Below, in pieces: positions 1,284-52,230 of a stretch of 64,000 bases of DNA. Source of the DNA: Prorocentrum cordatum (taxonomy: Eukaryota). The number at the start of each line of letters is the position of its first letter. Within the stretch, counting starts at the first letter, position 1. A model generated the notes under the pieces. It saw nothing but the letters and a program-made list of their open reading frames with translations. It made no database searches and was not told the DNA's origin. The position numbers and the translations under genes are program-made. Where the stretch lies: NCBI GenBank assembly GCA_963575745.1, contig CAUYUJ010000001.1:1612001-1676000 (forward strand). Reading direction: 5' to 3'.

Positions 1284-3512
1284 GTGGCGCCCCGAGGGTC
1301 TCGACTAGGCGCATTGTCTCTGAGGGAGGTGCTTGGCAAAGCTAAAATCTACGCAGACGAACGGCTTCCCGACCCGACGCGCGCTCGCGTCGGCGCGTGG
1401 AGCGCGCGGATGGCGGGCGACGGCAGCGGCTGGCAGCCGGTGGCAGGCGGCAAGGGCAAGAAGCTCGCGTTCGGCAGCGGGCGCGGGGGCGCAGTGGCCC
1501 AAGCCGGGCGAGGCAGCCCAGTGGACGCGCGGCGCCTGCGGCACGGCCGCGTTGCGGAGTCGGCGGCGTGGGAGGCGTTAGCGGCACGTGACGCGGTCGA
1601 CCCGCACTCCGAGGATCCTGATCTCGATGCGGTGGTCACGGCCATGTTGGACTTGATCAAGGCCTTTGAGAATTTGTCCTTGGTCAAGCTGTTTCAGGCG
1701 GGCCTCCGCTGGGGTTTCTCGCCGCCCATCCTCGCTGTGGTTATGTCCATCTTCGCGATGGCCAGGGCCCTAGTCGTCGACGGCTGCTTCGAAGACGAGG
1801 CGGGGGCCCAGACGGCCATTGTGGTCGGCAGCAAGTGCTCCGTGGCCTTGCTTCGCATGTTGTTGAGGGAGGGAATGGATTGCCTGGTCGCGCGCTACCC
1901 GTGCGTCGACTGGAAGCTGTCCGCGGACGACCTTTGTGCGCAACAGCGAGTGGCGGAGGCCTCCATGACCGATTTTGCCAAGGTTGATCTGGCCTTTTCG
2001 CTCGGCCAGGATGGCAAGTGCCACCAGCTGGCCAGCGCGCCGCGGCTGCTGAACGCGCCCAAGCCCATCGTGAAACGCAAAGGGATCAAGGTGCAGGCGA
2101 CGGGCGTGCACCTCGGGGTCGACATGCCGATGTCCAGGCAGGTGGCCAGGAGCAAGCGGCGGCAGCGGGCCGCGTCACTGGGCAACCGCACCATGCGATT
2201 TGACGGACTCCGACGCCAGGGCGAGGACATGGCGAGAGGGTGGCCTCGGCCTTCCGCGCAGGCCTAAACCGCCCTGCACGCGTGGCGCCAAGTGCCTGGG
2301 GATGTTCGACAGCCACCTGCTGGCACTCAGACGAGCTGCGGCCAAGTCGCCGCGCAGCAAGGTCGGCGGGGCCTCACTCACGCTGCTGCTCGCCACCGAT
2401 GGCAGGCAGGGCGACCCCATCTACGAGGTCTCAGCGGCGCCTGTGGTCGAGTGGGCCGCGGCGGTCTGGGACAGCAGCTTCGCGCCTGAGGTTATAGCTC
2501 AGGCCTGGCGCAGGCAGCAGCGCGAGGTGGGCATGGGGCGGCTGGGCAGCAGTTCGCGGTCCAGCAGGAGCCTGCGTGATGTCGCTCACGCGCGAGCTGC
2601 CCTGGGGCGCGTTCCGCACGCGCGCCCAGCTGGAGGCGCGACTGGCCGAGGTCTGCATCTTGGACTTCCAGGCCATGTGCAAGGAGGACCTCGAGTGCGA
2701 GCTGCGGGCGAAACGCACCCAAGAGGCCGACCTGGCACAGGTAGCCCCGCGGCCCTCGCTAACGCCGCGCGCGGACGCTGCCGCGCGCACGCTGCCAGCG
2801 CGGCGCGGCAGGCGGCGACGCGCGGGCCGTGGACACAGGGCGAGCTGCACAGGATAGGCAAGGCGCCTTCCCGGTAGTGTCAGGCCAGTGGGCGCGAGGC
2901 GGGCACTGCCCACCACCGCTACTACAGGTGCTGCAGGGCCGTCGCCCACAGGCTGGAAGCCCCGCGCAAGTGGCAGCGCGCGGCGGAGCAGGAGCCGCGC
3001 AGTCTCGTCTGGGCCCGAGGCTTGATCCGACACCCAGCTGCGGACTTGGCCTTCCAGCCAGTGGAGGTGCGACGGGGCCGCTGGGGCCGCCCGGGAGGCC
3101 GCCGCGCCCCGCCGGCGGCATATTGCAAAAATATATGGCAAGTTAGGTCGCCGGCCGTGGCCGCCAGAGGGGCCGCCGGGGCCGCTGCCAGGGCCCTGGG
3201 GCAGTTGCCGCGGACGCCAGGGCCGCCCAGGATGCGGCCGCCGGGGCTGCCCAGGAGGCGCATGCGCGCGCAGTCCGACCTCGGTGAAGGCGCCGATGGC
3301 GAGGGGGATGCTACCACCTGTTGCGACGACCTGGTCATCTTGCAGGGTGGGTGCCAGAAAGGCGGGCGGATGGACCATGTGCCGAAACCTTTGGAGGTTG
3401 ATCGGCCCCGGCTGCGTGCCGGCGCGATTCTGGTGGCGCTGCCGCTGGCCCGGCCGACGTTTCGCCCGTGCTGGCTGGCGGTGCCGACGTTGGCCTCGGC
3501 GACGCGGGCGCC
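1284..3512 (+). pseudogene. LINE reverse transcriptase region (frameshifted)
   Basis: Motifs GRVAESAAWE, MLDLIKAFE, AIVVGS, KLSADDL (degenerate Y/FVDD) and HLGVD. A later frame has a Cys-rich CYRC segment near 2920. Confidence 0.8.
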
Positions 3513-3530
3513 AGTAAGGCGCTGGATCAA

Positions 3531-4020
3531 GTCACGGTCACGGTCACGGTCACGGTCACGGTCATAGTCACGGTCACGGTCACGGTCACGGTCACAGTCA
3601 CGGTCACAGTCACAGTCACGGTCCCGGACCCGGACCCGGGCCCGGACCCAGACCCGGACCCGGACCCGGTCCCGGTCCCGGTCCCGGTCCCGATCACGGT
3701 CACGGTCACGGTCACGGTCACGGTCACGGTCACGGTCGCGGTCACGGTCACGGTCACGGTCACGGTCACGGTCACGGTCACGGTCACGGTCACGGTCACG
3801 GTCACAGTCACGGTCACGGTCACGGTCACGGTCACGGTCACGGTCACGGTCGCGGTCACGGTCACGGTCACGGTCGCGGTCACGGTCACGGTCACGGTCA
3901 CGGTCACAGTCACGGTCGCGGTGACGGTCACGGTCACGGTCACGGTCACGGCCACGGTCACGGTCACGGCCACGGCCACGGCCATGGCCACGGTCACGGT
4001 CACGGCCACGGCCACGGGCA
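3531..4020 (+). repeat. (GGTCAC)n microsatellite, with a GGACCC/GGTCCC variant block at about 3620-3690
   Basis: Hexamer array visible directly; it produces the spurious VT-repeat ORFs. Confidence 0.95.
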
Positions 4021-5099: not shown

Positions 5100-8000
5100 G
5101 CCCGACCCGCCCGCGAGGGCCCGCCCGCCCGACCCGACCCGACCCGCCCGTTAGGGTTCACGCGTGTCAAATGTAAACGCACCATACTTTAATGTCCCGC
5201 CCGCCCGACCCGACTCGCCCGTTAGGGTCCGCCCGACCCGACCCGACCCGCCCGTTAGGGTCCGCCCGCCCGACCCGACCCGCCCGCTAGGGTTCGCGCG
5301 TGTCAAGTGCACACGCACCATACTTTAATGTCCCGCCCGGCCGGCCCGACCCGCCCGTTAGGGTTCGCCCGGCCCGACCCGGCCCGCCCGTTAGGGCCCG
5401 CCCGCCCGACCCGACCCGACCCGCCCGTTAGGGTTCACGCGTGCCAAGTGCACGCGCACCATAATTTAATGCCCCGCCCGCCCGACCCGACCCGCCCGAA
5501 TTAGGGCCCGCCCGACCCGACCCGACCCGCCCGTTAGGGCCCGCCCGACACGACCCGACCCGCCCGTTAGGGCCCACGCGTGTCAAGCGCACGCGCACCA
5601 TACTTGAACGTCCCGCCCGCCCGACCCGACCCGCCCGTTAGGGCCCGCCCGACCCGACCCGACCCGCCCGTTAGGGCCCGGCCCGCCCGACCCGACCCGA
5701 CCCGCCCGTTAGGGTTCACGCGTGTCAAGCGTACGCGCACCATACTTTAATGCCCCGCCCGCCCGACCCGACCCGCCCGTTAGGGTCCGCCCGACCCGAC
5801 CCGACCTGCCCGTTAGGGTCCGCCCGCACGACGCGACCCGACCCGCCCGTTAGGGCTCGCGCGTGTCAAGTGTACACGCGCCATACTTTAATGCCCGCCC
5901 GCCCGACCCGCCCGCCCGTTAGGGTCCGCCCGACCCGACCCGACCCGCCCGTTAGGGTCCGCCCACCCGACCCGACGCGCCCGTTAGGGTTCACGCGTGT
6001 CAGTGCACACGCACCATACTTTAATGCCCCCCCGCCCGACCCGACCCGCCCGTAGGGCCCCGCCGACCCCGCCCGACCCGCCCGTTAGGGTCCGCCCGAC
6101 CGACCCGACCCGACCCGCCCGTTTAGGGTTCACGCGTGTCAGTTTACAACTGCACCTAACTTTAATGTCCCGCCCGCACGACCGACCCGACCCCAACCCT
6201 TCGTTAGGGTCCGCCCGCCCGACCCGACCCGACCCGCCCGTTAGGGCTCACGCGTGTCAAGTGTACACGCACCATACTTTAATGTCCCCCGCCCGCACCG
6301 ACCCGCCCGTTAGGTCCGCCCGACCCGACCCGCCTTAGGGCTCACAGTCGCGTCCAAGTGTCAGCACGCGCCCATTACTTTAATGTCCCGCCCGCGCGAC
6401 CCGACTACCCGCCCGTTAGGGTCCGCCCGACCCGACCCGACCCGCCCGTTAGGGTCCGCCCGCCCGACCCGACCCGACCCGCTTGTTAGGGTTCACGCGT
6501 GTCCAGTGCACACGCACCATACTTTAATGTCCCGCCCGCCCGACCCGACCCGCCCGCTAGGGTCCGCCCGACCCGACCCGACCCGCCCGTTAGGGTCCGC
6601 CCGCCCGACCCGACCCGACCCGCCCGTCAGGGTTCACGCGTGTCAAGTGCACGCGCACCATGCTTTAATGTCCCGCCCGCCCGACCCGACCCGCCCGCTA
6701 GGGTCCGCCCGACCCGACCCGACCCGCCCGTTAGGGCCCGCCCGCCCGACCCGACCCGACCCGCCCGTTAGGGTTCACGCGTGTCAAGTGTACACGCACC
6801 ATACTTCAATGTCCCGCCCGCCCGACCCGACCCGCCCCGTTAGGGTCCGCCCGGCCCGACCCGACCCGCCCGTTAGGGTCCGCCCGCCCGACGCGACCCG
6901 ACCCGCCCGTTAGGGTTCACGCGTGTCAAGTGCACACGCATCGCACTTGAATGTCTCGCCCGCCCGACCCGACCCGCCCGTTAGGGTCCGCCCGACCCGG
7001 CCCGACCCGCCCGTTAGGGTCCGCCCGACCGACCCGACCCGACCCGCCCGTTAGGGTTCACCGCGTGTCTAGTGTACCACGCCCCAACTTTAATGCCCCG
7101 CCCGCCCGAACCCGACCCCGCCATTAGGGTCCGCCCCGACCCGACCCTCGTCCGCACCGTTAGGGTCCGCCCACCGACCCGACCCCCCTATAGGGGTCCG
7201 CACCCGCACCGCACGACCCGACCCGCCTTAGGTTCACGCGTGTCAAGCGCACGCGCAACATACTACCATGCGGTAAGGCCCCGCCCGCTCACGCCCGACC
7301 CGACCCGCCCGTTAGGGTCCGCCCGACCCGACCCGACCCGCCCGTTAGGGCCCGCCCGCCCGACCCGACCCGACCCGCCCGTTAGGGTTCACGCGTGTCA
7401 AGTGCACACGCACCATACTTGAATGTCCCGCCCGCCCGACCCGACCCGCCCGAATTAGGGCCCGCCCGACCCGGCCCGACCCGCCCGTTAGGGCCCGGCC
7501 CGCCCGACCCGACCCGACCCGCCCGCTAGGGTTCACGCGTGTCAAGTGCACGCGCACCATACTTGAATGTCCCGCCCGCCCGACCCGACCCGCTTGTTAG
7601 GGCCCGCCCGACCCGACCCGCCCGTTAGGGTCCGCCGACCGACACCGACCCGACCCGCCCGTTAGGGTTCGCGCGTGTCAAGCGGGTCCGGTGGCCAGCT
7701 TAATGCCTCCGACCCGCCCCAACACCGAACCCGCCCGTTAGGTCCGCCCGACCCCGACACCGACTACCGTTAGGGACCGCCCGCCCCGAACCCGACCACC
7801 GTTTAGGGTTCGCGCGTGTCAGTCAAGCGCCCACGCACCATACTTTAATGTCCCGCCCGCCCGACCCGACCCGCCCGTTAGGGTCCGCCCGACCCGACCC
7901 GACCCGCCCGTTAGGGTCCGCCCGCCCGGCCTGACCCGACCCGCCCGTTCGGGTTCACGCGTGTCAAGTGCACACGCACCATACTTTAATGTCCCGCCCG

Positions 8001-8742
8001 CCCGACCCGACCCGCCCGTTAGGGTCCGCCCGACCCGACCCGGCCCGCCCGTTAGGGCCCGCCCGCCCGACCCGACCCGCCCGTTAGGGTTCGCGCGTGT
8101 CAAGTCTACACGCACCATGCTTTAATTTTCCGCCCGCCCGACACGGAAAAACCCGCCCCGTTAATGGTCCGCCCGAACCCGACCCGACCCGACCCTCCCG
8201 TTAGGGCCCGCCCGCCCGACGCGACCCGACCCGCCCGTTAGGGTTCACGCGTGTCAAGTGCACATGCACCATACTTTAATGTCCCGCCCGCCCGACCCGA
8301 CCCGCCCGTTAGGGCCCGCCCGACCCGACCCGACCTGCCCGTTAGGGTCCGCCCGCCCGACCCGACCCGACCCGCCCGTTAGGGTTCACGCGTGTCAACT
8401 GTACACGCACCATTTTTTAATGCCCACCCGCCAGACCCGACCCGCCCGTTAGGGTCCGCCCGACCCCCGACCCGCCGTTAGGGTTCACGCCCACCCGACC
8501 CGACCCGCCCCCCTTAGGGTTCGCGCGTGTCAAGTGTACACGGCACCGACCCGCCCGTCAGGGTCCGCCCGCCCGACCCGACCCGCCCGTTAGGGTCACT
8601 CGTGTCAAGTGCACACGCACCATGCTTTAATGTCCCGCCCGCCCGACCCGACCCGCCCGTTAGGGTCCGCCCGACTCGGCCCGACCCGCCCATTAGGGTC
8701 CGCCCGCCCGACCCGACCCGCCCGTTAGTGTTCACGCGTGTC
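5100..8742 (+). repeat. About 135-145-bp tandem satellite (about 25 copies) containing GTTAGGG and CCCGA repeats
   Basis: Unit is GGGTTCACGCGTGTCAAGTGCACACGCACCATACTTTAATGTCCCG followed by three (CCCGA)n-CCCGCCCGTTAGGG sub-repeats. Confidence 0.95.
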
Positions 8743-9305
8743 ACGGTCGCGGTCACGGTCGCTTTCTTCTTGTTCGCACAGCGCCGACCCCGGAGCGGCC
8801 TTGGGCCCGGCCACGGTCGCGGTCAAGGTCACGGTGCCGGTCACGGTCGCGGTCACGGTCGCGGTCTCCGTCACGGTCACGGTCACGGTCACGGTCGCGG
8901 TCACGGTCACGGCCACGGTCACGGTCACGGTCACGGTCACGGTCACGGTCACGGTCACGGTCGCGGTCACGTCACGGTCACGGTCACGGTCACGGTCACG
9001 GTCACGGTCACGGTCACGGTCACGGTCACGGTCACGGTCACGGTCACGGTCACGGTCACGGTCGCGGTCACGGTCACGGTCACGGTCACGGTCACGGTCA
9101 CGGTCACGGTCACGGTCACGGTCACGGTCGCGGTCACGGTCATGGTCACGGTCGCGGTCACCGCCACGGTCACGGTCACGTTCCCTTCTTCTTCTTCCCG
9201 CGCACGCCAGCCTGCGCTGCAGGGCGGTCGCGGTCGCGGTCGCGGTCGCGGTCGCGGTCGCGGTCGCGGTCACGGTCACGGTCACGGTCACGGTCACGGT
9301 CACGT
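8740..9305 (+). repeat. (GGTCAC/GGTCGC)n microsatellite
   Basis: Hexamer array in the same orientation as 3531-4020. Confidence 0.95.
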
Positions 9306-9769
9306 TCCCTTCTTCTTAACATAAAGGAAGAAGGCGAACGTGACTTGATCCAGCGCCGCACTCCGGGCGCTGTGCCCCGCAAACGGTTCCGGCGTGGCCC
9401 CCGGCGGCCCTGGAGGCCACCCATGAGTGTTTATGAGCGCGCAGGAAGGAGCGCTCAGAATTCGCCGCGATGGTCCAGGCGCCCCCCGGCGGCTCCTGGG
9501 GCGGCCTTGCGGGAGAGGGCGGCTCGCCCGCCGGCCGAGCGCCGGCAGCGTGCCGGAGCGATTCTGGGTCGCCGCGCTCTGGGCCCAGAAGTCTGGCCCC
9601 GGCGCCCGCGGCAGCCCCTGCCGCCCGCCCAGCGGACCGGGTGGCCTCGCTGGCGGGCGGGGCCGTTGCCGAAGCCTCTGGGGCAGCCGCTCCTCAGCAT
9701 AGTCCTGCGAGCGGCGAGCCCGAGGTGGGGCCGCCCCCTGGCGCCGAGCTGGAGCTCGAGGGCGTGGTC

Positions 9770-10260
9770 GCGCGCGACGGACCCAGGCTGGGGCGGCCAC
9801 CGCGGGGCCAGACGGGCTGGGCGGCCACGTCGGTCGACGCGGAGGGCCGCGCGAGGGCCCGGGCTTGGGGCCCGCTGCCTGCGTTCCCGCCAGTGCAGAG
9901 GACCGTCGAATCAAGCGAGCGGAGCTTTCGGCCTGCTCGCAGGTGCTTCGGCGCGCGCGCACGGCCGCCACGGGGGCCGTAGGGCCGTGCGAGGTATGCA
10001 CCGACCATCTAGCCATCGTCTTGGGGTTGCTGCGCGGGCGAGCCTGGCGATGCTGCGGCAAGTGGGCCCGCGCCGACGTGCGGAGGCAGATCTGGTGCTG
10101 CGCGGGGGGCGCGAGTTCCACATCGACAGCGTCCAGCACTACAAGGCACAACGCAGCCAGGCCGCGATCGCCGCCCTGAAGGGCCAGGGGGGGCGGGTGG
10201 CCTTCGGGAGCCACGAGGTCGATCGACTAGCCAAGCTGGCCGCCGAGATGGATTCGGGGT
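9770..10260 (+). pseudogene. Ribonuclease H domain of the LINE (degenerate)
   Basis: In order across frames: GVVARDG, WAA, GPLP..VQRTV, EVCTDHLAIV, ADVRRQIW, HYKAQ and GSHEVDRLAKLAA. These correspond to the RNase HI motifs TDG, E, TD, KAH and GNexAD.LAK. Confidence 0.75.
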
Positions 10261-10729
10261 TCTGGCGAGACCTTGCCATCCAGCGCATGGGGCCTGCACA
10301 CTTGCCGTGGGCTGGTAGCGCGAGCGGGTGGAGGTCTGGGGCGACATGCTGGAGAAGCCTGCCGAGCGGCCTCCTCGAAAGGGTGAGTCATGGGCGCTGC
10401 GGCCCCTGGGCCTGGCGCAGCGCGACCTTGTCGCCGCGGCCTTCGGCGCGAGGTGCCAGGCCCGCGGCGAGAGGGCTCGCGCCGCTGTATCCAAGCAGCA
10501 TCTCTATCCCAGCAGGTGCGCGCCGAAGCCGTGGAGGAGGCTGGGCCCATCTGCGGACCTGCACATGATAACGGGGCTGGGAGTGCGGATGCGCGCGAGC
10601 AGCCAGGCGGAGCCAGCCGTGGCCGAGCCCGCCATCGGCCCGAGTGGCGCGACCATTTCGCAGCAGCCCGGCGAGTCAAAGGTAGCTTATTTGCTGCGCG
10701 CGGTCCAGCGAGGACAGCAGTTGGATCTA

Positions 10730-11972: not shown

Positions 11973-12007
<35 letters not shown>

Positions 12008-14598: not shown

Positions 14599-14738
14599 CT
14601 GGGCACGGCGCGGCACGGCGCGACGCGCGGGCGCGGCGCGGCACGGCCCGTCCCCCCGCATTTCTTGGACCGCAGGCACGGCACGGCACGCGGGCACGGA
14701 CATTGCGCAGCCCACCAGCTTCGCATGTTGTGCCTCAG

Positions 14739-24549: not shown

Positions 24550-26700
24550 GATGTGCGCGGCTGCGGTTGCGGTCGCGCGCGCGGGCGAATTAAAATGCGT
24601 CGCCCGGTTGCGGTTGCGGATGCGACCGCAGTTGCGCGGGCGGGCTGGAGTGTGTCGCGCAGTCGCGGTTGCGGTTGCGCGGCCGGGTTGAAATGCGTTG
24701 TTTGGTTGCGGTTGCGGTTGCGAGGGTAATTTGAAATGTGTCGCCTGGTTGCGGTTGCGGTTGCGGTGCGATGGCGGGTTGAATTATGCCGGCTGGTTGC
24801 GGTTGCATTTGCGCGGCTGGGTTGAAATGCGTCGCCTTGGTTGCGGTTGCGGTTGCGGTTTCGCGGGCGGTTTGAAATGCGTCGTTTGGTTGCGGTTGCG
24901 GTTGCGCTCGCGGGCGGGTTGAAATAGTTGCAGTTGCGGTTGCCCTTGCGCGGGCGGGTTGAAATTCGTCGCCTTGTTGCGATTGCGGTTGCGGCTGCGC
25001 GGGCGGTCTGACATGTGTCGCCCGTCTGCGGCTGCGTTTGCGCATGCGCGGGCGGGGGGAATTGCGTCGCCTTGGCGGTGGTTGCGGTTGCTGTTGCGCG
25101 GGCGGGTTGGAATCCCAGTTGTGCCTGCGCGCGCGGGCGGGTTGAAATGTGTCGCCCTGTCGCGATTGCGGCTGCAGTTGCGAGGGCTGGTCGACTTGCG
25201 TCGCCTAGTCGCGACTGCGGTTGCGCGGCTGGGTTAGAGTGAGTTGCCTGGTTGCGGTTGAGGTTGCGCGGGCAGGTTGACATGCATCGCTTTGTTGCGG
25301 TTGCGGTTGCGGCGCGATGGCGGGTTGAATTATGCCAGCTGGTTGCTGTTGCGGTTGCGCGGTTGGGTTGACATGCGTTGCCTTGGTTGCGCCTGCGATT
25401 GCGGTTGCGGCTGCGCGGGCGGGTTGAAATGCGTCGCTTTGTTGCGATTGCGGTTGCGCGCGCGGGCGGGTTGAAATGCGTCGCCCAGTTGCAGTTGCGG
25501 ATGCGGTTGTGCTGGCGGGCTGAAATGTGTCGCCTTGTTGCGGTTGCGGTTGCGGCTGCGCGGGCGGGATGACATGTGTCGCCCAGTTGCGGTTGCGTCT
25601 GCGCATGCGCGGGCGGGTGAAACGGCGTCGCCCAGTTGCGGTTGCGGTTGCGGTTGCGCGGGCGGGTTGAAATCCTAGTTGCGGTTGCGCCTGCGTGCGC
25701 GGGCGGGTTGAAATGCGTCGCCTGGTCGCGATTGCGCCTGCAGTTGCGCGGGCGGGTTGAACTGCGCCGCCCGGTTTCGGCTGCTGTTGCGCGCGCGGGC
25801 GGGGTGGAATGCGTCGCCTGATTGCGGTTGCGGTTGCGGTCGCGCGGGCGGGTTGACATGCGTCGCTCGGTTGCGGTTGCGGTTGCAGTTGCGGTTGCGC
25901 GGGCGGGTTGACATGTGTCGCCCGGTTGCGATTGCGGTTGCGTGCGCGCGCGGTCTGACATTTGTCGCACGGGTGCGGTTGCGTTTGCGCGGGCGGGTTA
26001 AAATGTGTCGCCCAGTTGCGGTTGCGGTTGCCCGCGCGGGCGGGTTGACGCGCGTCGTCTGGTGGCGGTTGCGATTGCGGTTGCTTCGGCGGTATGAAAT
26101 GCGTCGCCCAGTTGCCCCTGCGTTTGCGCGCGCGGGCGGGTTGACGCGCGTCGCCTAGTGGCGGCTGTGATTGCGGTTAGGCGGGCGGGTTGGAATGTGT
26201 CGCCCGGTTGCGATTGCGGGTGCGGTTGCGGGGGCGGGCTGGCATGAGTTGCCCAGTCGCGGTTGCGTTTGCGCGCGCGGGCGGGTTGAAATGCGTCGCT
26301 TGGTTGCGGTTGCGGTTGCGGTGCGCGGGCGGGCCGAAATGAGTCGCCTAGTTGCGGATGCGGTTGCAGCTGCGCGGGCGGGTTTACATGTGTCGCCCGT
26401 CTGCGGTTGCGGTTGCGCGCGCGCGGCTTAGTTGAAAAGTGTCGCCCGGTCGCGTTTGCGGTTGCGGGTGCGCGGGCGGTTTGAAATGTGTCGCCCGTCT
26501 GCGGTTGCGGTTGTTGTTGCGCGGGCGGCGTGAATTGCGCCGCCCAGCTGCGGTTGCGGCTGCGCGCGCGGCAGGTCGAATGCGTAGCCCTGTCGCGGTT
26601 GCGGTTGCGCGCGCGGGTGGGTTGAAATGCGTCGCCTGGCCGCGGTTGCGCTTGCGCGCGCGGGCGGGTTGAAATGCGTGGCTGGGGTGCGTTTGCGCGC
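24550..26700 (+). repeat. About 40-50-bp minisatellite built on GGTTGC
   Basis: Unit is approximately GCGCGGGCGGGTTGAAATGCGTCGCCCGGTTGCGGTTGCGGTT. A (CAGT)n tract follows at 26746-26775. Confidence 0.92.
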
Positions 26701-29469: not shown

Positions 29470-31030
29470 GAATGGACACGAGCCAAAGAGATGCTGATAT
29501 ATGGCGGCCGCGCGCGCCCGCGACTGCAAGGGGGGCAACCCATTGCCAGCGAGGCGAGACAGCAATGGGGAACTCATGGCTTGCGAGGAAGACTTGGCGA
29601 GCCGCGGGCAGCAACGCTTTGCCAAAGTAGACGCGGCGACAACTGGGGCTGTCAAATCAGCGAAATCGGAGTTCAACGCGACGGGGCGCCGGAGTACTCC
29701 ACGCGATATTTGCGCCATTGAAGCGGCGTCCACTCCCGGTGCAACGGGGGCGCCCACCTCGACGGCGGCGAAGTTCAAGGGCGCCGGGCCGGGTCGAATC
29801 CACGACGGCCTACAGCGCGCAGCGTCGCGCCAGTCGAGCCGCGCGCGCAATCTCGCAGTCTTCGCGGCGGCAGCCGCAGGCGCGGGGCCCGCCGTTCGAA
29901 CGGCGCGCGACGTCGAGGCCGAGGCGTCGGAAGGAAAGGCAAATTCCCAGTTCTTGGAGGCGCGTCGGGCCGTCGCGCCGGGCCGCGTCACTCCGAAGCG
30001 CCAAGCGCTTCTACGCGTTGCTGCGCGGACATGTGTTGGCGACGATCAGCGCCGCGCTGAAGGGCTCGCAGGCGGGCGGGAGGAAGCGGCGAGGGCGTGC
30101 GATGGCGACCCGCCGGCGTCGATTTGCGCGGCAGCTGTCGAGAAAGATGGGCGTCGCACTTAACAGCTTTACTGCTGACTTGGCTGCGACTTTTTACACG
30201 ATGCTGCGGCATGCGGCAACCGCATCGGGTTCGACGCCTACAGAGATGGAGAAATTTCAGCATCGGGCAAATATACCGTGGCTCTTGTCGACGCCGGTCA
30301 GGGCTATCATTGTAAGGCCTGGGCTGGTGTCTTCCAAGATCTTGTCGTTGGGTCGCAGCGCCTGACTTGCTGTCGGGCGCCTGGGGGCGCGGCTGCAGCG
30401 ACGGCGCGCCGCGGGGGCAGATCTGGGAATGGATCTTCTGACCATTTGCCGACTGTTTCCCGGCCCGTTGAAAGATGCGCGAAGGTCTTTTTTTGAAAAG
30501 GGGGCGCCGTTTCGACCGGGTGAGTGGTTTGAGGTAGTGGCCCAGGCGGCTGGCGCAGAGTGAGAGGTGAACGCGCTGGCCGACGCCATCTTCGATGACG
30601 ACGGCGCAGCGCCGGCGACTCGCAGGCGCAATATTGCAGGCGCGGGGGGAGGGGGGGCGGGCCGTCGAGAGCGCGGGCGGGGCGGCGTTGCACGATGCAA
30701 AATCTGCATCTGCAATGGCGCAGAATTGTTACCCAGGGGAAACGGCGACAATGTCTTGCAGTCGTGGCAAGGGCCCCTTCCCTGAGGGCCAAGCGCGTGC
30801 AATGCGGAGAGGATGATCTGGACATAGAGAGCAGTAATGGCCAACGTCGTTTACCAGTTGTGAGGCTGTGCAAGCATCTTGGCGCGATGATTTCGCGCGG
30901 CGTGCGTCGGGAACCAGATCGGGGGCCAGATCGGGCATGGCGCACTCAACGACGTGCCGAGGGTCTCCGCCCTTGCGATCAGATCATGCTGGAACCTGAT
31001 ACTATCCACCGCCCAAAGCAGCTAGCTGCG
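29470..31030 (+). pseudogene. Highly decayed LINE reverse transcriptase
   Basis: Ordered motifs across frames: LASRGQQRFAK (RWxxHF), KGAGPG (KAxGPD), FTADLAATFYTMLR (FVDLxxAFY), RPG, DAIFDDD (xVDD) and LPVVRLCKHLGAMI (YKHLG). Confidence 0.7.
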
Positions 31031-42029: not shown

Positions 42030-42189
42030 CTCAGTCTTGGGGAGGCGGGCACACACACACACATGCAAGGGTTCGGCGGAGCGCAGACGAGCCGAGGCGG
42101 GCGAGGCGGAGGTGAGCAGATGCTCGGGTGCCGAGGCGCGGGGCAGCGACAGCGCCAGAGTGAGCTTGGCCATGCCCAAGGAGTTTTAG

Positions 42190-42353
42190 CAAGGGCTCCC
42201 ACGAGGGCGCGAAGTTATTCGCGCTTCGCGCTTCGCGGTCCTCGTTCCTCCTCCTCGTCCTCCTTTTCTCCCTTTGGGGGGGCGGCGCGAGGGCGCGAAG
42301 TTATTCGCGCTTCGCGCTTCGCGCAGCGCGAAGCGCGAAGTTGGGAGCCCTTG
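42190..42353. mobile_element. MITE family B, copy 3
   Basis: CAAGGGCTCCC...GGGAGCCCTTG; both flanks are TTTAG. Confidence 0.9.
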
Positions 42354-43875
42354 TTTAGAGCTTGTGCAACTGCTTCGCGAGAGGTGAGGGGTGTGTGTGT
42401 GTGGCGCGGCGGGAAGACGTGTTGGCTCGAGGGAGCCCTCCGGCGTTTTTCTATTCTGCATAGTTCCGTGATCCAGCAGGTGGGTGGGACAGTGCAGCCC
42501 CGAGTTTCTGCGAGATCTGCACGATTCGATCGCGTTCTCGTAAACCTTCAGGCGGTGCAGTGACAGCGTCGATTCAGGAAAGTGTTCGGCGTTGGTGAGT
42601 CCCAGGTACATATTCTACCGCTTAGAGACAGTAGCGATATTGTGCGATTTCCCCGCAAGGGTCCTCATTATCGACCGCGAGACCCTCAACCTCCTGAGTA
42701 TCTGACGGTTCCTTGTCCACGGAGCGTCTGGGACGTAGCTCCACGATCCACGATGCGACCGAAGCAATGCAAGTAGTAGAAGACAAAGACGCGAACGGTG
42801 GCACGCGAAACAAGCAAGGTAAGGTAGCACGAATAACGCGAACGAAGCAGCACGCTGCGTAAACGTAGACTTCGGAGGCTCTCGCGGCGATTCATCGGCT
42901 CCGCGATGGGCCCCCCGCCCTGGGGGCGCCGCTGGAGGCGCAGCCAGGGGCGTGGGGAGGGGGGCTCCGGCGCCGGCCAAGACTATCCGCGCGGACCTCC
43001 GACCAGGCTCTGCCAAGGTGCAACTCTGTTGCCTTTCCAGGCGCCAGGAAGCTGGACTTTCATGACGCGGCCGGCGTGGGCAAGCGCTGGACACGTGTGG
43101 CCGCACGTCTTCACAGCGTCCGCCCTCGTGTGGCTGGGCACGGTGGCACTCCGCGTGTGTACCCAGCGCGTGGCCCCCGGATGTCCCACGTGCGAATCTA
43201 GTCGTGTGTGCTTTCGCCTCTCCGGCTCCTCGCTGGTGCAGCCAACTCTGCCTCGCCGCCGACGGCAAAAGTGTTCCCGGCTCCGGCGCCGAGAGGCGCC
43301 AGGAAGACTGGCCGCGTGCAGTTGGTTCGTGAGCCTCATTCTTTCCTGGCAACATCCCTACTCTAGAGCATCCCGGGCGAGAGCACCCCGAGGCTGGAAA
43401 ACTTATGAGATGCCAGCGTAAACGCCCGAAAACCTCGGACCTGGATGTACAGTACATTCGTGACGTGTCGACTCGGCGGCGACCGCACCGCGGGGCGTTC
43501 AAGGCTGAACGCCACCAACGGTCGTTCGTCAGGAGGGGAAACAACACACAGACACAATCAATCGTTCACTCCCAGGAGAATATGGAACATATGGGAAGTG
43601 GGGGGGAAGACAAACATTCAAAACATACGCGCAAGAGTGGGGAATCATCCTGTTTGTGTGGATTTCTTTGTGTGTCCTGGGGCCCCTCCAGTTCGTCCCA
43701 CCTGGAACGATCTGCGATCCCGCAGAGCCGCCCTCGCCCTCGAGGTGGAGCGACCCACGCGGCGCCGCACGCGGGGCGCACAGGGCCGCCACGGCGTGGC
43801 CCCCGGGTCCCTTCCTGCTGGCCAGGGGGGGGCACGGCGCCGAGCGGGCCCCGGAGGCCGAGATCGAGGAGCAGC

Positions 43876-44240
43876 TTGGGCGTTGCGTAATGGAGGGGTC
43901 ATAAATACGGTAGGTTTGCGTCGTGTCGACCGGCGGCGACCCCAGCGCGGACGTTCAAGGTTGAACGCCGCCGGCGACCCAGAATCGATCGATGTTGAAC
44001 GATTGGACGTTGCGGAAATGGCCGATCGCTCAAGGTTGAACGATCCCTGCGGTGTCAAAAACCAACGCCGGGGTCGGCACGACACGAACCTGCCGTAGGG
44101 GGGTGGCGAGGGTGGTCCGAAAAGGTACCCAAACGGTACCTAAACGAGCCCCCTGGGACTCCAGAGGGGCCCGAAAGGGGCACGAGAAGGGACCGTTTCT
44201 GACCCCCCCATTTATGACCCCCCCATTAAGCCACGCCCAA
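43876..44240. mobile_element. MITE family D
   Basis: About 30-bp imperfect TIR TTGGGCGTTGCGTAATGGAGGGGTCATAAA; GCAGC on both sides (43871-43875, 44241-44245). Confidence 0.85.
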
Positions 44241-44460
44241 GCAGCGCCTGGATTGGTTCGATCATGCCGTCTGTTTTCTCGCATCGCGAGCCCCCAGAGG
44301 CCTCGACCCATTCCCCAGGACCGTCGCTCATCGTCCCGAGTCGGGTCTTGACGGTCCCGGGGCCCGGCAAGGGCCCCAGAGGCCGCACGTGGCAGCAAGA
44401 CATTGCCCGTCGTGTTTTTGTCCACGTCGCGAGGCTGCCTGGGTCCCGCCCACCCTTCTA

Positions 44461-44644
44461 GGCCTCCCAAATGGGACCAGAGCTGATGGGGTTGTAGGAT
44501 CGCGCCGCATCGCCGAAGCATCGGCGATGCGGCTCGATGTGGAGCTCGATTCTCCCCACGCTGACGTCGGCGATGCATCGGCGATGCACTGGCGAGGCGG
44601 CCGGATCCTCCGACCCCGTCTGCTCGGACCCCTCTTGGGAGGCC
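44461..44644. mobile_element. MITE family A, copy 2
   Basis: GGCCTCCCAA...TTGGGAGGCC with the same internal palindromes as 10730-10966; flanks are TCTA and TCCA. Confidence 0.85.
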
Positions 44645-45167
44645 TCCAGCCCTGCAGCCCGCCCCCACGCGTGGGCTTCGGGGTGCCATGGCCCCGCCAG
44701 CGCTCCCGCTGCTCCTCTGGTCCCTGGGCGTGCCAGCCTCGGCGTACCGGCCGAGCGGCGGGGAGGCGCTCGAGGCCCCCGCTGGTTGGCGGGCCGATCA
44801 GGGGCAGCGCTGCAGTCAAGACGCTGACATGAGTCAAGGGAGGAAAAACCACCCGGACATGACAATTGACGTTTACTAAACGGCCTTGGGCGTTTACTAA
44901 GCAGCCCTGCCCTGTTCGATTCTTTCCCTGGGTGCGTTTACTACACGGCTTCGCTTGTCGGGGTGATTCTGATGGGGGTGGGTGTTCTGCCCTCTAGTGA
45001 GCGCCGCTCTGGGGTCAGGAGGGTCTCTCGTGGTCGGGCCGTTCCTTGCACGCAGGTGGGGGGACCCCAGATTCGTGGCCGGGGTTCGCCGGGGCTGGAA
45101 GAGCAAGATCCGTTCCTTTTTCCGTACTAGCACGATGGCTGGCAGAGGAGAGATCCTGCTGGGAGGC

Positions 45168-45381
45168 TGTGAGAATCAGATAGGCGAGGATGTGAGATTT
45201 AGGGTCATAATGGAGTATATTTCCCTTCCGCCCATGGCCGTTGTGGCTCATAAGCTGGGCGGGAGGGTGGACGCACCGACTCACTGTTTGTTATGAGTAC
45301 GGCGATAAATAGATCGTGCTAATCTTATCTTGTGCTTGCGTCAAGTGCATGGTGGGAGGGATCGTGTGCTCTGTATTTGCA
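45168..45381 (+). repeat. 5' LTR
   Basis: TGTGAGAATCAGATAGGCGAGGA...TTTGCA, colinear with 54011-54225. Confidence 0.88.
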
Positions 45382-45382
45382 C

Positions 45383-45396
45383 TGGTAGCCTGGAGC
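45383..45396 (+). promoter_or_regulatory. Primer-binding site, initiator-Met-tRNA-like
   Basis: TGGTAGC lies one base after the LTR and is complementary to the ...GCUACCA 3' end typical of eukaryotic tRNA-iMet. The rest of the match is unverified. Confidence 0.6.
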
Positions 45397-45629
45397 TGTA
45401 TCAGTTCTACGGTTGCGCGTTCTATACCAGAGTGGCCGTGCAGACCTACATGTTGGCGCTCAAAGTTCTCGCGTTGCTTTGCCAGTGCGTTCTTCACATT
45501 TCAGTTATCGATACGATGAGCATCATCACTTGCAGCCTGGGCGAAAATCGTTGCCGCGAGCCGGACGGCAGCAGTGATAACAACAACATTGACTACGAGC
45601 TGGACGGCGGTCCCATCACTAAAAACAAG

Positions 45630-46760
45630 ATGGCGACCAGGCAGCAGCAACCCAACGACGGACCCCTCTTCGTGGACAAGGAGGGCGTCGCACACTACAG
45701 CGGCGACCCAGCCTACGGCGAGGAGTTCGAGGAGCGTGCGATCCTCGGCTATTATGCGAGCGAAGAGAAGCTGCAGAAACTCTACGCCATCAACATCACG
45801 AATTCATTGACTGGGCGAGCGCGGAAGAGATTGCAACGCAAGCAGCGTTGGACAAATCATGTGATGACCCACTTGCTGCAGTGAAGATGGTGGTGGCAAG
45901 GGTACGGCAGGCGTGCGAGCGGATCGCCCCACTACAGAAGCAACAAGCGTTCGAAGAGTATTTATTCAAAGGTTTTCGCAACATACCGGAGTCTGCGCAA
46001 GTCTACATCTTGAAGCGGGGGACGGAGTTTGAGCGGCTTGAGTTTTTCTCAGCAAACACGACAGTCAGCGAAGATTTACGGACGTACTTCCTACTAAAGT
46101 TGGCCAGCATCAGCATGACCGACCGCACTGCTATTCTCGGGCAGTGCAACAACGAGTACATATGAGATGATGTGACGGCGGCAATGCTCATCCAAGTGGA
46201 CACGACGTGCAGAGACGAACGTGGTCACAGACGTTGTGGAGCATGCCCGGTGGACTACGACGGTGACGAGGAGGAAACCCTACTTGGATACGAGTGTTGC
46301 GTATGCGATGAGGACGGGCTCCTGAGGGATGAAGACTATGACTCGCTGGCAGCCGACATCGATGAGTTGGAGCGGGCGGTTGACGACGTCGGCCCCGAGG
46401 AGGTCAGCCAGGAGGAGTGCGACACTCTAGCGGCTGAGACACAGCGTTTCGGGTGGAAGGCTGGACGAAAAGGCCACAGGCCCAACTGCAAGCAAACCCG
46501 GGAGAGGCTTGCACAGAGCAAGTCCAGCCGAGGCTGGAAGGCCAACATCAACAAGCAGGGATCCATCAAGATGGACGGCAAGGAAGTCGAAGAGAAGCTA
46601 CATTCGACAACGCCCGCACGAAGTGTTACGCATGCCGCGAGGAGGGCCATTGGAAAGGCGACCCCGAGTGCGAGAAGACAAGACAAGGCCATCAGGTGGC
46701 GGGCCATCGGGCAGCCTACAGCGTGGAGGACGAGGTGGTGGCCGAGGCTTTCACGGGCGA
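45630..46760 (+). pseudogene. Copia gag with zinc knuckle (frameshifted)
   Basis: GVAHYSGDP..EEFEER, FRNIPESAQVYI and EDLRTYFLLK, then CYACREEGHWKGDPEC at about 46624-46671. Confidence 0.8.
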
Positions 46761-47499
46761 CCTGGAGGTTTCCTGCGACGGGCTGGGTTTGCGATGGCAA
46801 CGGCTGTGAAGCTACTGATGGCGGGCAGCTCAATGGGCATGACTGCCATCCAGATCGTGAATGACCAGCTGGCGAACAGACACCACGATGGAGGATATCG
46901 CGAGTCTGGCGAGGGTGTGGATCGACACCGACGATCAGAACGTGAACACCTGGACGGTATCAGCATTTGGAGACGACCGAGGTACGCGAGAACCTGAGGG
47001 TAGCGAGGACCAAACGCCAGACTCTGGATCAGGACAGACATGGCCCAGCAGATCGATCACCGACTGCCATGAAGAGGATGCCACAGTGGCAGGCCTACAG
47101 ATGATCAAAGATCGAGCAGCACAGGCTGCAGCAGTATGGGTCAGCTGTGAAAACAAGGAAGCAGCCTACAGGGATTACATGGATTGGTGCGTGGACTGGG
47201 CACTGCGCCGGATCCGCCAGCTCATGCACATCACGACGGAAATGGCACCACAGGGACTCAGGAACTTGCAGGAACTTGGCGTGCGACCTATGCCAAGCAT
47301 CCTGGGACAGTAGCTTGGACATGCGAGACATCGCAAGGAGCACCTGCGAGCACCTACCTCATGGAGCGCGACCGACATGTTTGTGGATGGACCGATGGAA
47401 CGCAGGACGGGCGCAGACTGCAGGCCCACAGAGGATCGCGCACCATCATCTGGCCTGCAGGTGAACGATGGGGAGCTGGAGGCGACCGAGGCCTACGCG

Positions 47500-47910
47500 G
47501 TAAGGAAAGGACTTATTCTCGATGGACATGCTGCACTGGGCACGGCGTGCTTACGAGGATGCGGAGGTTCAGTAGCGTCGGACGGCTACGCGGAGGACAG
47601 CAGGGTCACTGCGATGATGAGGGGCTCATCCACGCGAGTCCGAGGCGTGAATGATAGCGCCCTGGCCATGGCAGAAGGCGAGCAGGAGGTCACTGCTGGA
47701 CACGCAGGAGCCGACGTGAATCTGCGATTCGAGAGGCTGACGAAATCGAAGACGCCAATACTGCTAAGCATCCACTAGCTGGAGGGGCCAGACGCAGCGG
47801 TGTGCGTGAAGGAGCGGAAGGCGGACTTCAAAGCGATCAACATGTACGGGGTGCCGTTCAACAAGACCGAGAAGGGGCGCCTGGCGATCTCGCCCAAGGA
47901 CTGGCCGAAG
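47500..47910 (+). pseudogene. Copia aspartic protease (catalytic Asp mutated)
   Basis: GHAALGTACLRGCGG, where LDT has become LGT (GGC at 47539); later TPILLS. Confidence 0.65.
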
Positions 47911-48109
47911 AAAGAAACTACCAAAACAGTGCCATCAGTTACGACGGATGAGATCGACATCTGGACCGCGGAGTTGCAAGAAATAGACGAGGGCATCCCA
48001 CGACGAAGGCAGAGGAAGCAGATCGAGGCCTGGGAGAGAGAATTGCAGGGCAAGCTGGACCAGCGCCAGCAGGTCGTGGAGTTGCTGCAGGCGGACCTAG
48101 AGGAGAAAC

Positions 48110-48735
48110 GGCGTATCACTTGCGAGCTCTACGTTGGTGGCGTGGCAGCCGCGTTGGAAGCTTCGCAGCGGCGACGCCCTGCTACGAGACCAAAGGAAAT
48201 CCTGACAGGGGACGACCTACTGGACATCAAGTCACAGCGGAAAATGTTGAAGCAGCTGGACGAAGACGACCCCCGCGTGACTATCGTGGGTTTTCCATGC
48301 GACCCGTTCGAACACATCGCGCATGTTTCCGCGGAAGACGAGGGCGATGAAGCTAGCAACTGGCATGAAGCACCTGCGGTTCGTCAAGCAGATCTGGCTT
48401 AACTGCAAGCGTCGAGGAGCGCGCATGCTACTGGGGAATCCGCTGGCATCCAAGGCGCGGAAGCTCATGCCGTGGCTAGGCTCAGAGCATGCGGCCGCGA
48501 TGACGCACCGGTGCGCCGAGGGCAGCAACCTGGTGGACATCCTGGGCGATCCCGTCGAGAAGCCGACGTGCTTCCTGACTGCGGCCATCGTGCTGGGCGC
48601 CAAGCTCAACAGCACCAGGTGCGACAACGCGCGCGAGAGCACGGGCGTGACCAACAGGCCGCAGCGAACAGCATCAAGTCTTGGCAACTGGGCGGTCAAC
48701 CTGGCTAAGACGATCACGGGCGGCATCGAGGAGCA
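48110..48735 (+). pseudogene. C5 DNA cytosine methyltransferase-like domain within copia pol (frameshift near 48320)
   Basis: CELYVGG (motif I-like, 48121), TIVGFPC (motif IV, catalytic PC at 48295-48300), LLGNP (motif VI ENx-like, 48428) and SLGNWAVNLAKTI (motif X-like, 48677), in canonical order. Confidence 0.68.
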
Positions 48736-48919
48736 GCGGGGCCTCGCGAAGCAGCGCGGTGGGCGCGCCAGGTGCGCCGACAACTTCGAGGACACCGGGC
48801 TCGACGAGATCGAGGCCAATCCTGCAGAGGCGGAGGCGCCCATGCACGCAAGTGCAGCGTCGATCTTCAGCGAGCTCGGCGACACAGTCGAGACGGCGGC
48901 ATGGGCGGCGGCGCCGCCA

Positions 48920-49930
48920 CCCATGCGAGCAGCTATCAAGAAGATGCACGAGAGCCATTCACATGGGCCCTACAAGGAGTCACTGGTACGATACTTACAG
49001 CACGGTGGAGCTAGTCGACGAGCGGCGCAGGCAGCGCGACTCTGGAGATGCACAAGGTGTGGGTGTCAGGCTCGGACGGCAGCAAGACCTGCAGCGGTCC
49101 AGCCAAAGGTTAGAGACCTCCACGAGGCCTTTGACATGGATCTCATGCTCTTGCCCGACATGGACAATAACATGCAAGTGGTGCTTGTGATCGTGGATAT
49201 AGCATCGGGATTTACAGAGGCTATCTACACGTGTCCTGGATCCAGACCGACGGCAGAGTTGGCGAAAGAAGCTTTCGAGCTTGGGTGGCTGACCCGGGCT
49301 GGGCCACCTACTGCGGTTGAGCAGGTCCAGAGTTCGAGACACTGCGCAACGACCTCGGCCTGGTGGTCAAAAACGCTGCGCCATAAGCTCACTGGCGACT
49401 GAGCATGGTCGAGAGGAAGATACGTGACCTAAAGGAAATGGCGACGAGTGTCTTCAATGCTGGAGAAATTCGTGGCCAGGATTCAGTTGCAGCTGCAGTG
49501 CGAGGCGTGGCCGACGTGCGCAGCCATCTGGTTGGCACAGCGGGCTTTTCACCGCAGCAGTGGGCACTGGGATCTGGACATCGACTACCTGCGAGTCGGG
49601 TGAATCCCGACAACGACTCAGCAGTAGTTTCCAGGGTAGCTGAAAGAACATCGCTCTGGAATCGGCTACACCTTTAGCAGATATGCTCGGAAGCATTTTC
49701 AAGGCAGCTAACTCATCTTCTTTGAGGCGGGCAGTGCTGGCAAGGACGAGGCCCCAGCCGTGGCCCTTCCAGCAAGGTGATCTACTGATGTTCTGCCGAT
49801 CGGACAATCTAGACAGTAACTTTCATGCTCGATGGCGCGGACCTGCCAGGTGCTCGGGCAAGGGCGAGCATGGTTACTGGCGGAGTCACAGTCGGATCCC
49901 GATTCTGAGCTCACCACTGCGAAAAGCGAC
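48920..49930 (+). pseudogene. Copia integrase
   Basis: HHCC zinc motif (KMHESHSH...CTRC), FDMDL, VIVDIASGF, GWLTRAGPP, VERKIRDLK, GFSPQQWALG and RWRGPARC. Confidence 0.88.
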
Positions 49931-51189
49931 CGAGCACGACGTGGCGACCATGCCGCTCACCAACCTGATTTCAAACGGCAGGCCGGCCCGATCGCGAGCT
50001 TGACAGAGAGGCTTTATAGACACTCGAGGAGAACGATATTATCCAGCACGAGCTGCTCAGCAGCCAGATCAATCGCCTGATCGACAGCCAGGCCAACATC
50101 AAGATCAGCAGCCTCCAGAACGGCAGCAGGGAAATCATCGGCAGCTACCTGGACAGCAAGAAGCTCCACAACAGCAGCCAGTGCAAGAACAACCAGACAC
50201 ACCAGGAGCAGCACCAGCTCAAGGTGGTGCGGGTCATCCGAAGCAGTCGGACAGCAGAAAGAGACGATCGGATGCGCCGCGCGACAATGACGTGATGCCG
50301 ATGCGGCAGAGGCTGGGCGATGAGTACGAACCAGTGCCAGCTGATCAAGACCAAGCAGAGGAAGATCTGCGGGCGCGACTACGTCGAGCACACCAAGCCT
50401 GGGACACAATCCCGAGAGCAGTGGCATCCAGCTGTCAGGGCAAGACTTACCTGAGACAGCTGGACAACATCAGGAATGCACCTCTACTACCCGAACCGGC
50501 ACCGGGTTATCAGATCGAGAGGAGGCGGTTGTTCAATCTGGACACGCGCGACCTGGGCCCAGACATTTCGAGGGCGGACTGGCTAGCAAGCCCTCAGATC
50601 ATCGACGATGTGGCGGCGCAGCAACCGATCGCGGTCATCGAGGATGCCACGTCGATGAAGGAAGAAGGGGCTGAAGATGGACAGGGAGGTGACCGACAAC
50701 CTGCAGCCTCACAGCCTGGACCTCCAAGCGGTGGCAACGCCGACGAGATCATGGAGGAGCCGGAGCAGCCCGAGGAGGTGAAACGCGATGGTAAGAAGCA
50801 TTCTGTCAAGAAGGACCTGAAGCTCAAGCAGACCAAGAAGGATGATGCTCACGACGACCGAGCTCAATTTCAAGTACCTGCCATTATCCAGAGGAATATG
50901 GAAGAACGTGAGAAGGCAGAGGAGACGGCGGCAGCGCCGACCACAGCAATGGAACAGCAACAAGGGACAACAATATCGAGCACAAGACAGCCGGAGCAGC
51001 AGCAGGGCAGCATGCGCCAGGAACATCCCGCGACGTTTAAGGAGTTCTTGCTGGGCGACGTGCCCATCAGCATCAAGCGCGCGAAGGTGCGGACGGGACC
51101 AGTCAATCAGCTGGCAGAGACACCGCTCCTTGTCGAAGCATTCGTGGCCGAGCGGATGCGCGCGCAGCCGACAAGGGCTAACAAGCATC

Positions 51190-52230
51190 AGGAGATCAAC
51201 CTAAAGACGCTGGGCGGCGGCAAGCTCAAGTGGGAGAAGATGCAGAGTGCAGTGGAGAAGGAGTGGAATACTTGGTGCCAGTACGGTGCAGCAACCCACA
51301 TATCAGGGGCAGCGGTTGAGAATATTGACCCAGACAAGATCCTAAGCTCCAAGGTGGTCTGGGCGGACAAGGGCCCTGCGTCCTTTGAGCCTGTGGCGAG
51401 AACATGTGGACGGGGCTACAAGGAGGAGTTCGACGACAAGCTACGTCGAGACCCTCCTACAGTCTCAGCACAGGCGACGCTACTTCTGTGCAGCGTCGCA
51501 TCGAGCCTCGACTTGGACCTAAGCGTTGCAGATGCGAAGGAAGCCTCTCTACAAGGCACGGTGATCACACGCGAGCTCCACTTTCGGATCCCGACGGACC
51601 TTAGGAAGTGCATCATCCCAGGTGCTAAGGCAGGCGACCTGCTGAAGCTTGGCAAGAGCGCCCACGGGACCAACGATGCGGCGAGAGCTTGGTACGCGGC
51701 GCTGCGCGAGACGCTCGTGAAGCTTGGGTGGGAAGGCCTGAGCTTCGAGCCCGCGGCCTTCATCAAGCGCAACGAGGAGAACACGATTATCGGGATCATG
51801 TGTCTACACGTGGGCGACTTCCTCATGGTCATCAAGCAGGACGACCCTGATGGCGCCAACATCATGAAGGACCTTCAGAAGGATATTGACGTTGGCGAGG
51901 TCAAGGACGCGAGGCAGGAGAAGGCGGCGTTATGTGGCCGGGCCTATCAACAGGACACGGACGGCAGCATGAACGTCGCCATGGAGGCCTATGTGAAGTC
52001 TATGCTGATTGTTTTTTGTCAACCATGTATATTTTTTCGCTGAGCGCAGCAAACACCTGACAGTGCACTTGCCCCTGCAGAGCATCGAGGACTACGAAGG
52101 ATGGTTGGACAACAGCAGCGGGCTGCGCGAATGATTTGCTTCGCAGAGGCCTTCGAGGCATCCCGATTGGCATCGACGCTGGGAGCTCCCACGGTGAAGG
52201 ACCTGCAGGACGGGAATGCATCTATCAGGT
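51190..52230 (+). pseudogene. Copia reverse transcriptase (RVT_2-type; catalytic motif HVGD)
   Basis: AVEKEWNTW, ARTCGRGY, DPPT, ADAKEASLQG, LGKSAHGTNDAARAWY and CLHVGDFL within ORF 50181-52043. Confidence 0.92.

Follow-up and report, generated by a model that had tools for sequence, protein, structure and literature searches.

The 64-kb stretch of DNA analysed here (hereafter, the window) carries a decayed Ty1/Copia retrotransposon, putatively spanning 45.2-54.2 kb, plentiful tandem arrays, and frames that had been taken for long interspersed nuclear elements (LINEs). From codons in these elements and from satellite variants, a sequence-only reading had proposed a reverse form of repeat-induced point mutation (RIP), in which inactivating substitutions across unrelated elements run from A to G and from T to C, perhaps through a thymine-targeted process linked to 5-hydroxymethyluracil (5hmU). 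Our analysis leads to a more ordinary view: the lean towards A>G and T>C very probably reflects relaxed coding sequence drifting to a GC-rich equilibrium, compounded by the picking of examples by eye, and not reverse RIP. The window as a whole is 62.6% GC, with 0.665 in the tandem arrays, 0.627 in the non-repeat remainder, and 0.57 in the Copia interior. The features of the Copia element are as follows.

45168..45360, + strand: putative 5' long terminal repeat (LTR), GC 0.50, low contig depth
47539..47541, + strand: GGC codon, previously read as the protease change LDT>LGT; present, in a frame without a Pfam protease match at E<=10
48434..48436, + strand: GGG codon, previously read as ENP>GNP; present, in a frame without a family match
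50004..52040, + strand: Copia reverse transcriptase (RT) frame of 679 codons, with RVT_2 in its C-terminal part (about 51399-52004)
51534, 51546, 51663, and 51813, + strand: the DAK, ASLQ, AHG, and HVGD sites inside the RT frame, all codons read
54011..54203, + strand: putative 3' LTR, GC 0.54

The RVT_2 match in the RT frame (PF07727, E 8e-8) scores 32.6 bits, barely above the curated cut-off of 31.6, and is the sole transposon domain among the frames scanned with Pfam, namely 252 stop-to-stop frames of at least 120 aa and 91 smaller + strand frames in the cited regions. The Atlas score for RVT_2 on the same frame is 0.96, and a full HMMER scan returned 2250 relatives at E<=0.001, with 322 at E<=1e-10; P0004 is the only homologue of near-equal length. 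Like Ty1/Copia LTR retrotransposons, the window's RVT_2 has the D..AFLQG, YG, and HVDD blocks of the family, and putative LTRs lie 8.8 kb apart; the copy differs from intact members in its decay, with HVGD, AHG, and ASLQ in these blocks and broken frames. The 194-nt direct repeat (79% identity, 8843 nt apart) is plausibly, judging from the sequence, the LTR pair around the RT. No Pfam-detectable protease, integrase, or RNase H was found in the Copia frames with matches sought up to E<=10, and a zinc-knuckle match upstream of the RT is weak; by eye, an HHCC-like and a D,D-like pattern can be made out within 48281-49399. As for the proposed protease change at 47539, the string ILDGHA, six codons upstream, presumably fits the protease motif at least equally well.

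The codons themselves were reported correctly. All seven that had been cited with coordinates are present in their + frames (47539 GGC in LGT, 48434 GGG in GNP, 51813 GGC in HVGD, 51663 CAC in HG, 1923 GCG in ADD, 10209 AGC in GS, and 30869 TGC in CKHLG), and two cited without coordinates were found at 51546 (TCT, ASLQ) and 51534 (GCG, DAK); FVDL>ADL and HF>RF had no certain placement in the window. Ancestral residues in the RT were assessed from the relatives aligned at each site among the best 150 of the 2250 matches, and three of the four calls agree with them: 122 of 129 have D at the HVGD site, 104 of 135 have F at the ASLQ site, and 117 of 134 have Y at the AHG site. Close fragments of 68-81% identity concur, with HVDD in P0079, F and Y in P0034, and V in P0026, and HVGD itself recurs in 4 of the 129, including the closest long relative, P0004. 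The fourth call, DVK>DAK, fails, with I in 52, V in 46, and A in 23 of 134 relatives; since A is common at this site, the change is not inactivating.

The list of examples was also selective. The very motif DAKEASLQ also has G>E at 51540, from G>A, and T>K at 51537, from C>A, neither of which was listed. The genetic code leaves AT to GC as the only direction for transitions in codons for Y, F, or N, and 4 of the 11 examples are of this kind (Y>H, F>S, N>S, and Y>C); 5 of the 11 sit on elements unrecognised by any tool. In further copies of the family, the same catalytic residues have been lost: D>G is seen at either aspartate of HVDD in P0004 and P0013 (HVGD) and in P0029 (QVDG), and Y>C at the YG block in P0011 and P0014 (ICG). 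Such GC-ward loss recurs independently, as would be expected if one bias decays the whole Copia family.

At the DNA level, the spectrum of the family was obtained from contigs of one public run (X1) that matched positions 41000-54600 at a likeness of at least 80%. There are 11062 such contigs (426 at >=99%, 1755 at 95-99%, 4596 at 90-95%, and 4285 at <90%), and every Copia bin has X1 depth, so that the family is multi-copy in that organism. Contigs and window differ at 1760 places, unpolarised, with a ratio of transitions to transversions of 1.96. Counted from window to contig, they comprise 328 A>G, 251 T>C, 344 G>A, and 242 C>T, that is, 579 AT-to-GC against 586 GC-to-AT transitions (P=0.86), and all differences between weak (A or T) and strong (G or C) bases divide into 756 against 768. 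The equilibrium GC implied by these counts is 0.593, compared with an actual 0.596 for 41000-54600, and per site AT>GC exceeds GC>AT by about 1.45-fold; the per-base values of A>G and T>C over the same stretch are 0.110 and 0.100.

The best-supported 40 of the 1760 places form a window-private set, polarised by the fact that every contig there differs from the window. From family to window, transitions number 13 AT>GC and 11 GC>AT, and 17 weak-to-strong changes compare with 16 strong-to-weak ones; the 39 sites in the Copia part give 12 against 11 and 16 against 16, respectively. Two of the 40, at 51453 and 51603, match the S>P and G>R changes inferred from the proteins, which cross-checks the polarisation, and none of the cited codon positions is among them. 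The polarised spectrum thus holds no raw excess of AT>GC, which is one of the outcomes under which the proposal of reverse RIP was to be given up. Runs X2 and X3 yielded 2 and 11 matching contigs, from which no conclusion was drawn.

The tandem arrays (66 rows from Tandem Repeats Finder, or 12.6 kb as a non-overlapping set) provide a second spectrum. Those that matter most for the argument are the following.

3531..4017, + strand: (GGTCAC)n array of ~81 units
5101..8728, + strand: 141-nt satellite with embedded TTAGGG, flanked by both (GGTCAC)n arrays
8808..9304, + strand: (GGTCAC)n array of ~82 units, with unit and strand as in 3531-4017
24665..26679, + strand: 49-nt satellite, the top contributor to the satellite spectrum (73 AT>GC against 52 GC>AT transition cells)

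Seventeen arrays were each aligned, cyclically, to the majority unit, and columns entered the count only where the majority reached 60%. Transition cells again balance (196 AT>GC against 193 GC>AT), and over all cells 263 weak-to-strong changes stand against 295 strong-to-weak ones. Per site, weak-to-strong change (0.083) is about 1.9-fold more frequent than the reverse (0.044), or 2.2-fold for transitions alone. The two rates imply an equilibrium GC of 0.657, for which bootstrapping over arrays gives a 95% interval of 0.555-0.725. The claimed variants do exist: GGTCGC accounts for 4 and 15 units and GGCCAC for 6 and 2 units in the two hexamer arrays, and CTAGGG occurs 4 times against 56 for TTAGGG. 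Variants with one mismatch in 3531-4017, several of them in runs, comprise GGTCGC 4, GGCCAC 6, AGTCAC 6, GGTCCC 5, and three others once each; of the 15 GGTCGC units in 8808-9304, 7 form a single run.

Nor is there any sign that thymine is singled out by its context. T>C per site ranges from 0.049 to 0.079 over all 5' and 3' neighbours in the satellites, with no neighbour preference, which speaks against a T-targeted process. C>T at CpG (0.034) is not raised over that at other sites (0.020-0.036), and CpG observed/expected is 1.02 for the window and 0.94 for Copia. The absence of methyl-CpG decay had been claimed correctly, and, with AT>GC exceeding GC>AT per site in both the Copia family and the satellites, it sets the pattern apart from the C>T erosion of methylated repeats; there is no likeness to the CpG decay known from animals and plants.

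The proposed bias does appear at amino-acid-changing sites of the Copia RT. An unpicked count over RT residues 380-679 took every position at which the window carries a private residue and 60% or more of the relatives share a different one. Twenty-nine positions qualified. At 20 of them the difference is an unambiguous change of one base (6 A>G, 6 T>C, 3 G>A, 1 C>T, and 4 transversions); 6 are multi-step changes, and 3 are ambiguous. Window-private transitions accordingly stand at 12 AT>GC against 4 GC>AT. When weak-to-strong and strong-to-weak changes are assigned by amino-acid pair, the window has 14 against 5 and 15 other copies have 27 against 15; the other copies lean the same way, and the tendency is therefore real and common to the whole family. 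Thus, the bias claimed for inactivating changes stands at the protein level of the RT but not in the raw DNA counts of the Copia family or of the 17 arrays.

The size of this bias is what a GC-rich equilibrium predicts. Pooled over the 16 copies, 41 weak-to-strong changes stand against 20 strong-to-weak ones (41/61 = 0.672). The expectation was derived by counting amino-acid-changing opportunities in the RT codons, whose GC is 0.59, 0.42, and 0.72 at positions 1, 2, and 3. With symmetric rates, the expected weak-to-strong share is 0.495, from which the observed share departs (P=0.004), whereas at an equilibrium GC of 62.6-65.7%, the expected share is 0.62-0.65, in agreement with the observation (P=0.25-0.43). 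The window alone (12:4 and 14:5) likewise fits the equilibrium (P=0.21-0.36).

The remaining examples came from frames described as LINEs or RNase H, where there is little to anchor an ancestral state. The relevant features are the following.

1260..1280, + strand: spliced-leader-like 21-mer with 3 mismatches, directly before frame 1266-2264
1266..2264, + strand: frame of the "first LINE", 333 codons, with the cited GCG at 1923 (SADD)
10209..10211, + strand: AGC codon, previously read as RNase H GN>GS; present, without an RNase H match at E<=10
30869..30871, + strand: TGC codon, previously read as YKHLG>CKHLG in the "second LINE"; present

The "first LINE" frame has no Pfam match at E<=10, matches no solved reverse transcriptase, and yielded no homologue in a word-indexed search. 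Its matches to solved structures are at chance level only (e.g., the Nek2 coiled coil, E 0.013), and the Atlas supplies the sole lead, a feature match to clusters of RVT_1 (0.90). Should it be a non-LTR reverse transcriptase, A at 1923 would be the usual residue, since such enzymes, we assume, normally have F/Y-A-D-D. The frame 8697-10565 around the AGC at 10209, "RS/GH-rich" in composition, is mostly the translated hexamer array of 8808-9304. For the "second LINE", no + frame of 27.5-33.5 kb has a Pfam family match up to E<=10; in particular, the RVT_1 domain finds no Pfam match at E<=10 either for 1266-2264 or about 30-31 kb. The two supposed LINEs are without similarity to each other in a self-comparison of the window.

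Collectively, these results fit a simple mechanism. The neutral substitution equilibrium of the window would lie at roughly 60-66% GC, with a change to G or C about 1.5-2 times as frequent per AT site as the reverse, and raw counts balance between the two directions because AT sites are fewer. A dead Copia copy would be freed from protein constraint, and its codon positions 1 and 2, formerly held by the protein near 50% GC, would now drift upward, so that amino-acid-changing differences lean AT>GC by about 2:1. The choice of examples would sharpen this impression: it seems that only conserved D, E, Y, F, N, V, and H residues were examined, whose codons are A/T-rich at positions 1 and 2, and that only cases in line with AT>GC were listed.

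Implied equilibria of 0.59 for Copia and 0.66 for the satellites bracket the non-repeat value of 0.627, and the same process can therefore account for the composition of the non-repeat DNA. We infer that the cause is genome-wide, either mutation bias or GC-biased gene conversion, and not specific to repeats; GC-biased conversion is a possible cause. A generic GC-ward process is thus likely, and it is an already known one: compositional equilibrium of GC-rich genomes is an established concept. As that concept has it, weak-to-strong change exceeds strong-to-weak change per site, the counts are even in sequence that has reached equilibrium, and a net weak-to-strong flow arises only at codon positions 1 and 2, which selection had kept AT-richer; the window shows no difference in kind. 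Dinoflagellates, for their part, are said in the title of one paper to have a "universal bias towards GC rich codons".

The comparison with RIP itself is instructive. In fungi, RIP produces almost exclusively C>T and G>A, prefers CpA, and shifts repeats strongly towards AT relative to unique DNA. The window shares with it only the idea of a directional transition signature on repeats, and differs in that the two directions are equal (579 vs 586, 13 vs 11, and 196 vs 193), neighbours are not preferred, transitions exceed transversions only about 2:1, and there is no hypermutation and no GC-ward shift. Indeed, GC is lower in the Copia interior (0.57) and the putative LTRs (0.50 and 0.54) than in the non-repeat remainder, which only the arrays exceed, and a Copia element GC-poorer than its surroundings is the opposite of the trace that GC-ward hypermutation of repeats would leave. 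Reverse RIP and a repeat-specific process thus both find no support.

Several points weigh against the equilibrium explanation. The equilibrium of unique DNA is represented by its composition only, the totals over the 1760 places are not polarised, and the polarised set is limited to the best 40. About 4 kb of the stretch compared with X1 belongs to other repeats, rare variants are lost in Logan contigs, and some differences may be between species, given that the protein relatives come from differently labelled or unlabelled data sets. The ratios of the window copy (12:4 and 14:5) exceed the 27:15 of the other copies without reaching significance. Finally, the two (GGTCAC)n arrays, with 30 AT>GC against 13 GC>AT transition cells, retain 18 against 8 events when runs of identical variants are merged by eye into single events, which goes beyond equilibrium (P=0.013-0.03, uncorrected); these arrays are a post hoc choice of 2 out of 17, being the two that the sequence-only reading had flagged.

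The alternative that survives best starts from this last observation: GC-biased conversion or a GC-ward mutation bias could be stronger in repeats, for instance through ectopic or intra-array conversion, and erode them faster. The hexamer arrays lie above the equilibrium expectation, the arrays in general have a higher GC than the remainder (0.665 vs 0.627), and the satellite equilibrium of 0.657 is slightly above the GC of the window. This is set against the Copia family, whose implied equilibrium of 0.593 falls below the background and whose element is GC-poorer than its flanks, and against the satellites as a whole, whose interval (0.555-0.725) includes the background and whose raw counts over 17 arrays balance. 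We regard such a repeat-enhanced bias as unlikely.

It is decidedly improbable, on the other hand, that there is no per-site bias whatsoever and that the list is the product of chance and choice. Four of the 11 cases could, as transitions, go no other way, changes in the opposite direction were omitted from the same motif, and 5 of the 11 fall on unrecognised elements, all of which would suit selection by eye; however, the pooled 41 against 20 departs from symmetry (P=0.004), and the satellites, with their 1.9-fold bias per site (2.2-fold for transitions), already disfavour this reading.

The excess in the hexamer arrays might also hint that GC-ward bias beyond equilibrium in some repeats reflects a thymine-directed process acting on silenced repeats, to which we attach very little probability. 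If true, it could represent mispairing or repair of modified thymine (in a dinoflagellate) and would make mutation a cost of silencing through 5hmU.

The full form of this idea, a 5hmU-linked process that turns T:A into C:G in silenced elements, is more doubtful still and can be held only as a bare conjecture. Its published basis is the marking of repeats by a modified thymine: according to PMC11572971, 5hmU is enriched on the transposable elements of a dinoflagellate and has a role in silencing them. The paper reports silencing, not mutagenesis, and it finds repeats with a high density of 5hmU to be mostly less diverged, a point against the idea. A link with 5hmU also presupposes that the window comes from a dinoflagellate. 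In the window, T>C exceeds C>T per site, and the spliced-leader-like 21-mer at 1260-1280 hints at a dinoflagellate, but there is no raw AT>GC excess in the Copia family or the satellites, no neighbour preference, and no GC enrichment of the repeat. The 21-mer was found once in the window and in none of 100 shuffles, with a dinoflagellate spliced-leader pattern, and no second relic (16-mer core, at most 2 mismatches) is present in the window; it may be the remnant of a trans-spliced transcript inserted by retroposition. Another point against a 5hmU-linked process is that, among relatives with a name, those nearest to the Copia RT (68-81% identity over 51141-52040) bear the EukProt label of a green alga, Pyramimonas sp. 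CCMP1952, so that 5hmU may be absent from the organism altogether. This label is carried by 6 of the 10 shorter RT relatives listed (P0156, P0158, P0010, P0012, P0114, and P0029), with EukProt protein numbers above 470,000.

Least credible of all is editing of the retroelement RNA by an adenosine deaminase before reverse transcription, which would leave A>G and for which one may note that A>G is the commonest class among the best window-private sites (9 of 40), but which should affect a single strand, whereas sense-strand A>G and T>C are equal in the RT (6 and 6) and close per base (0.110 vs 0.100), and satellites, which are not retrotranscribed, have the same per-site bias; as the changes are symmetric between strands, this origin was rejected.

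Some further observations concern the surroundings of these elements. TpA is strongly depleted throughout the window (observed/expected 0.60), with CpG at expectation. Dispersed copies within the window, as found by self-comparison, consist only of the LTR-like pair and one repeat of ~170 nt, too little for polarising substitutions. The latter has 3 copies, at 14737-14913, 41866-42029, and 42188-42355 (94% and 88% identity); the two near 42 kb fall in a bin with an X1 depth of ~4,177 and may represent a small high-copy element. Very high-copy repeats apparently flank Copia, as judged by summed word depth in X1 (67,967 at 54166-54600, 11,622 at 44178-44631, 6,130 at 43270-43723, and 4,177 at 41908-42361, against about 50-250 for Copia). 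A direct duplication of 1451 nt occupies 34906-37234 (34906-35202 vs 36357-36653, 95%), each duplicate containing first a (CAGCCT)n array and then a 73-nt satellite. Rfam and tRNA scans of the window gave no match, and a search of the Joint Genome Institute (JGI) metagenomes for related DNA gave 163 pattern matches and no relatives.

For the study of decaying repeats, these results carry a lesson of method: in GC-rich genomes, "inactivating" changes in conserved D, E, Y, F, and N codons invariably appear biased from AT to GC, and changes at the level of motifs constitute no signature without a full polarised spectrum. A process that targeted repeats with AT>GC change would, if true, represent a new kind of genome defence or the mutational footprint of a thymine modification. 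The evidence points instead to an ordinary GC-rich genome, in which coding sequence, once dead, gives up its constrained A/T-rich positions as it approaches the background equilibrium.

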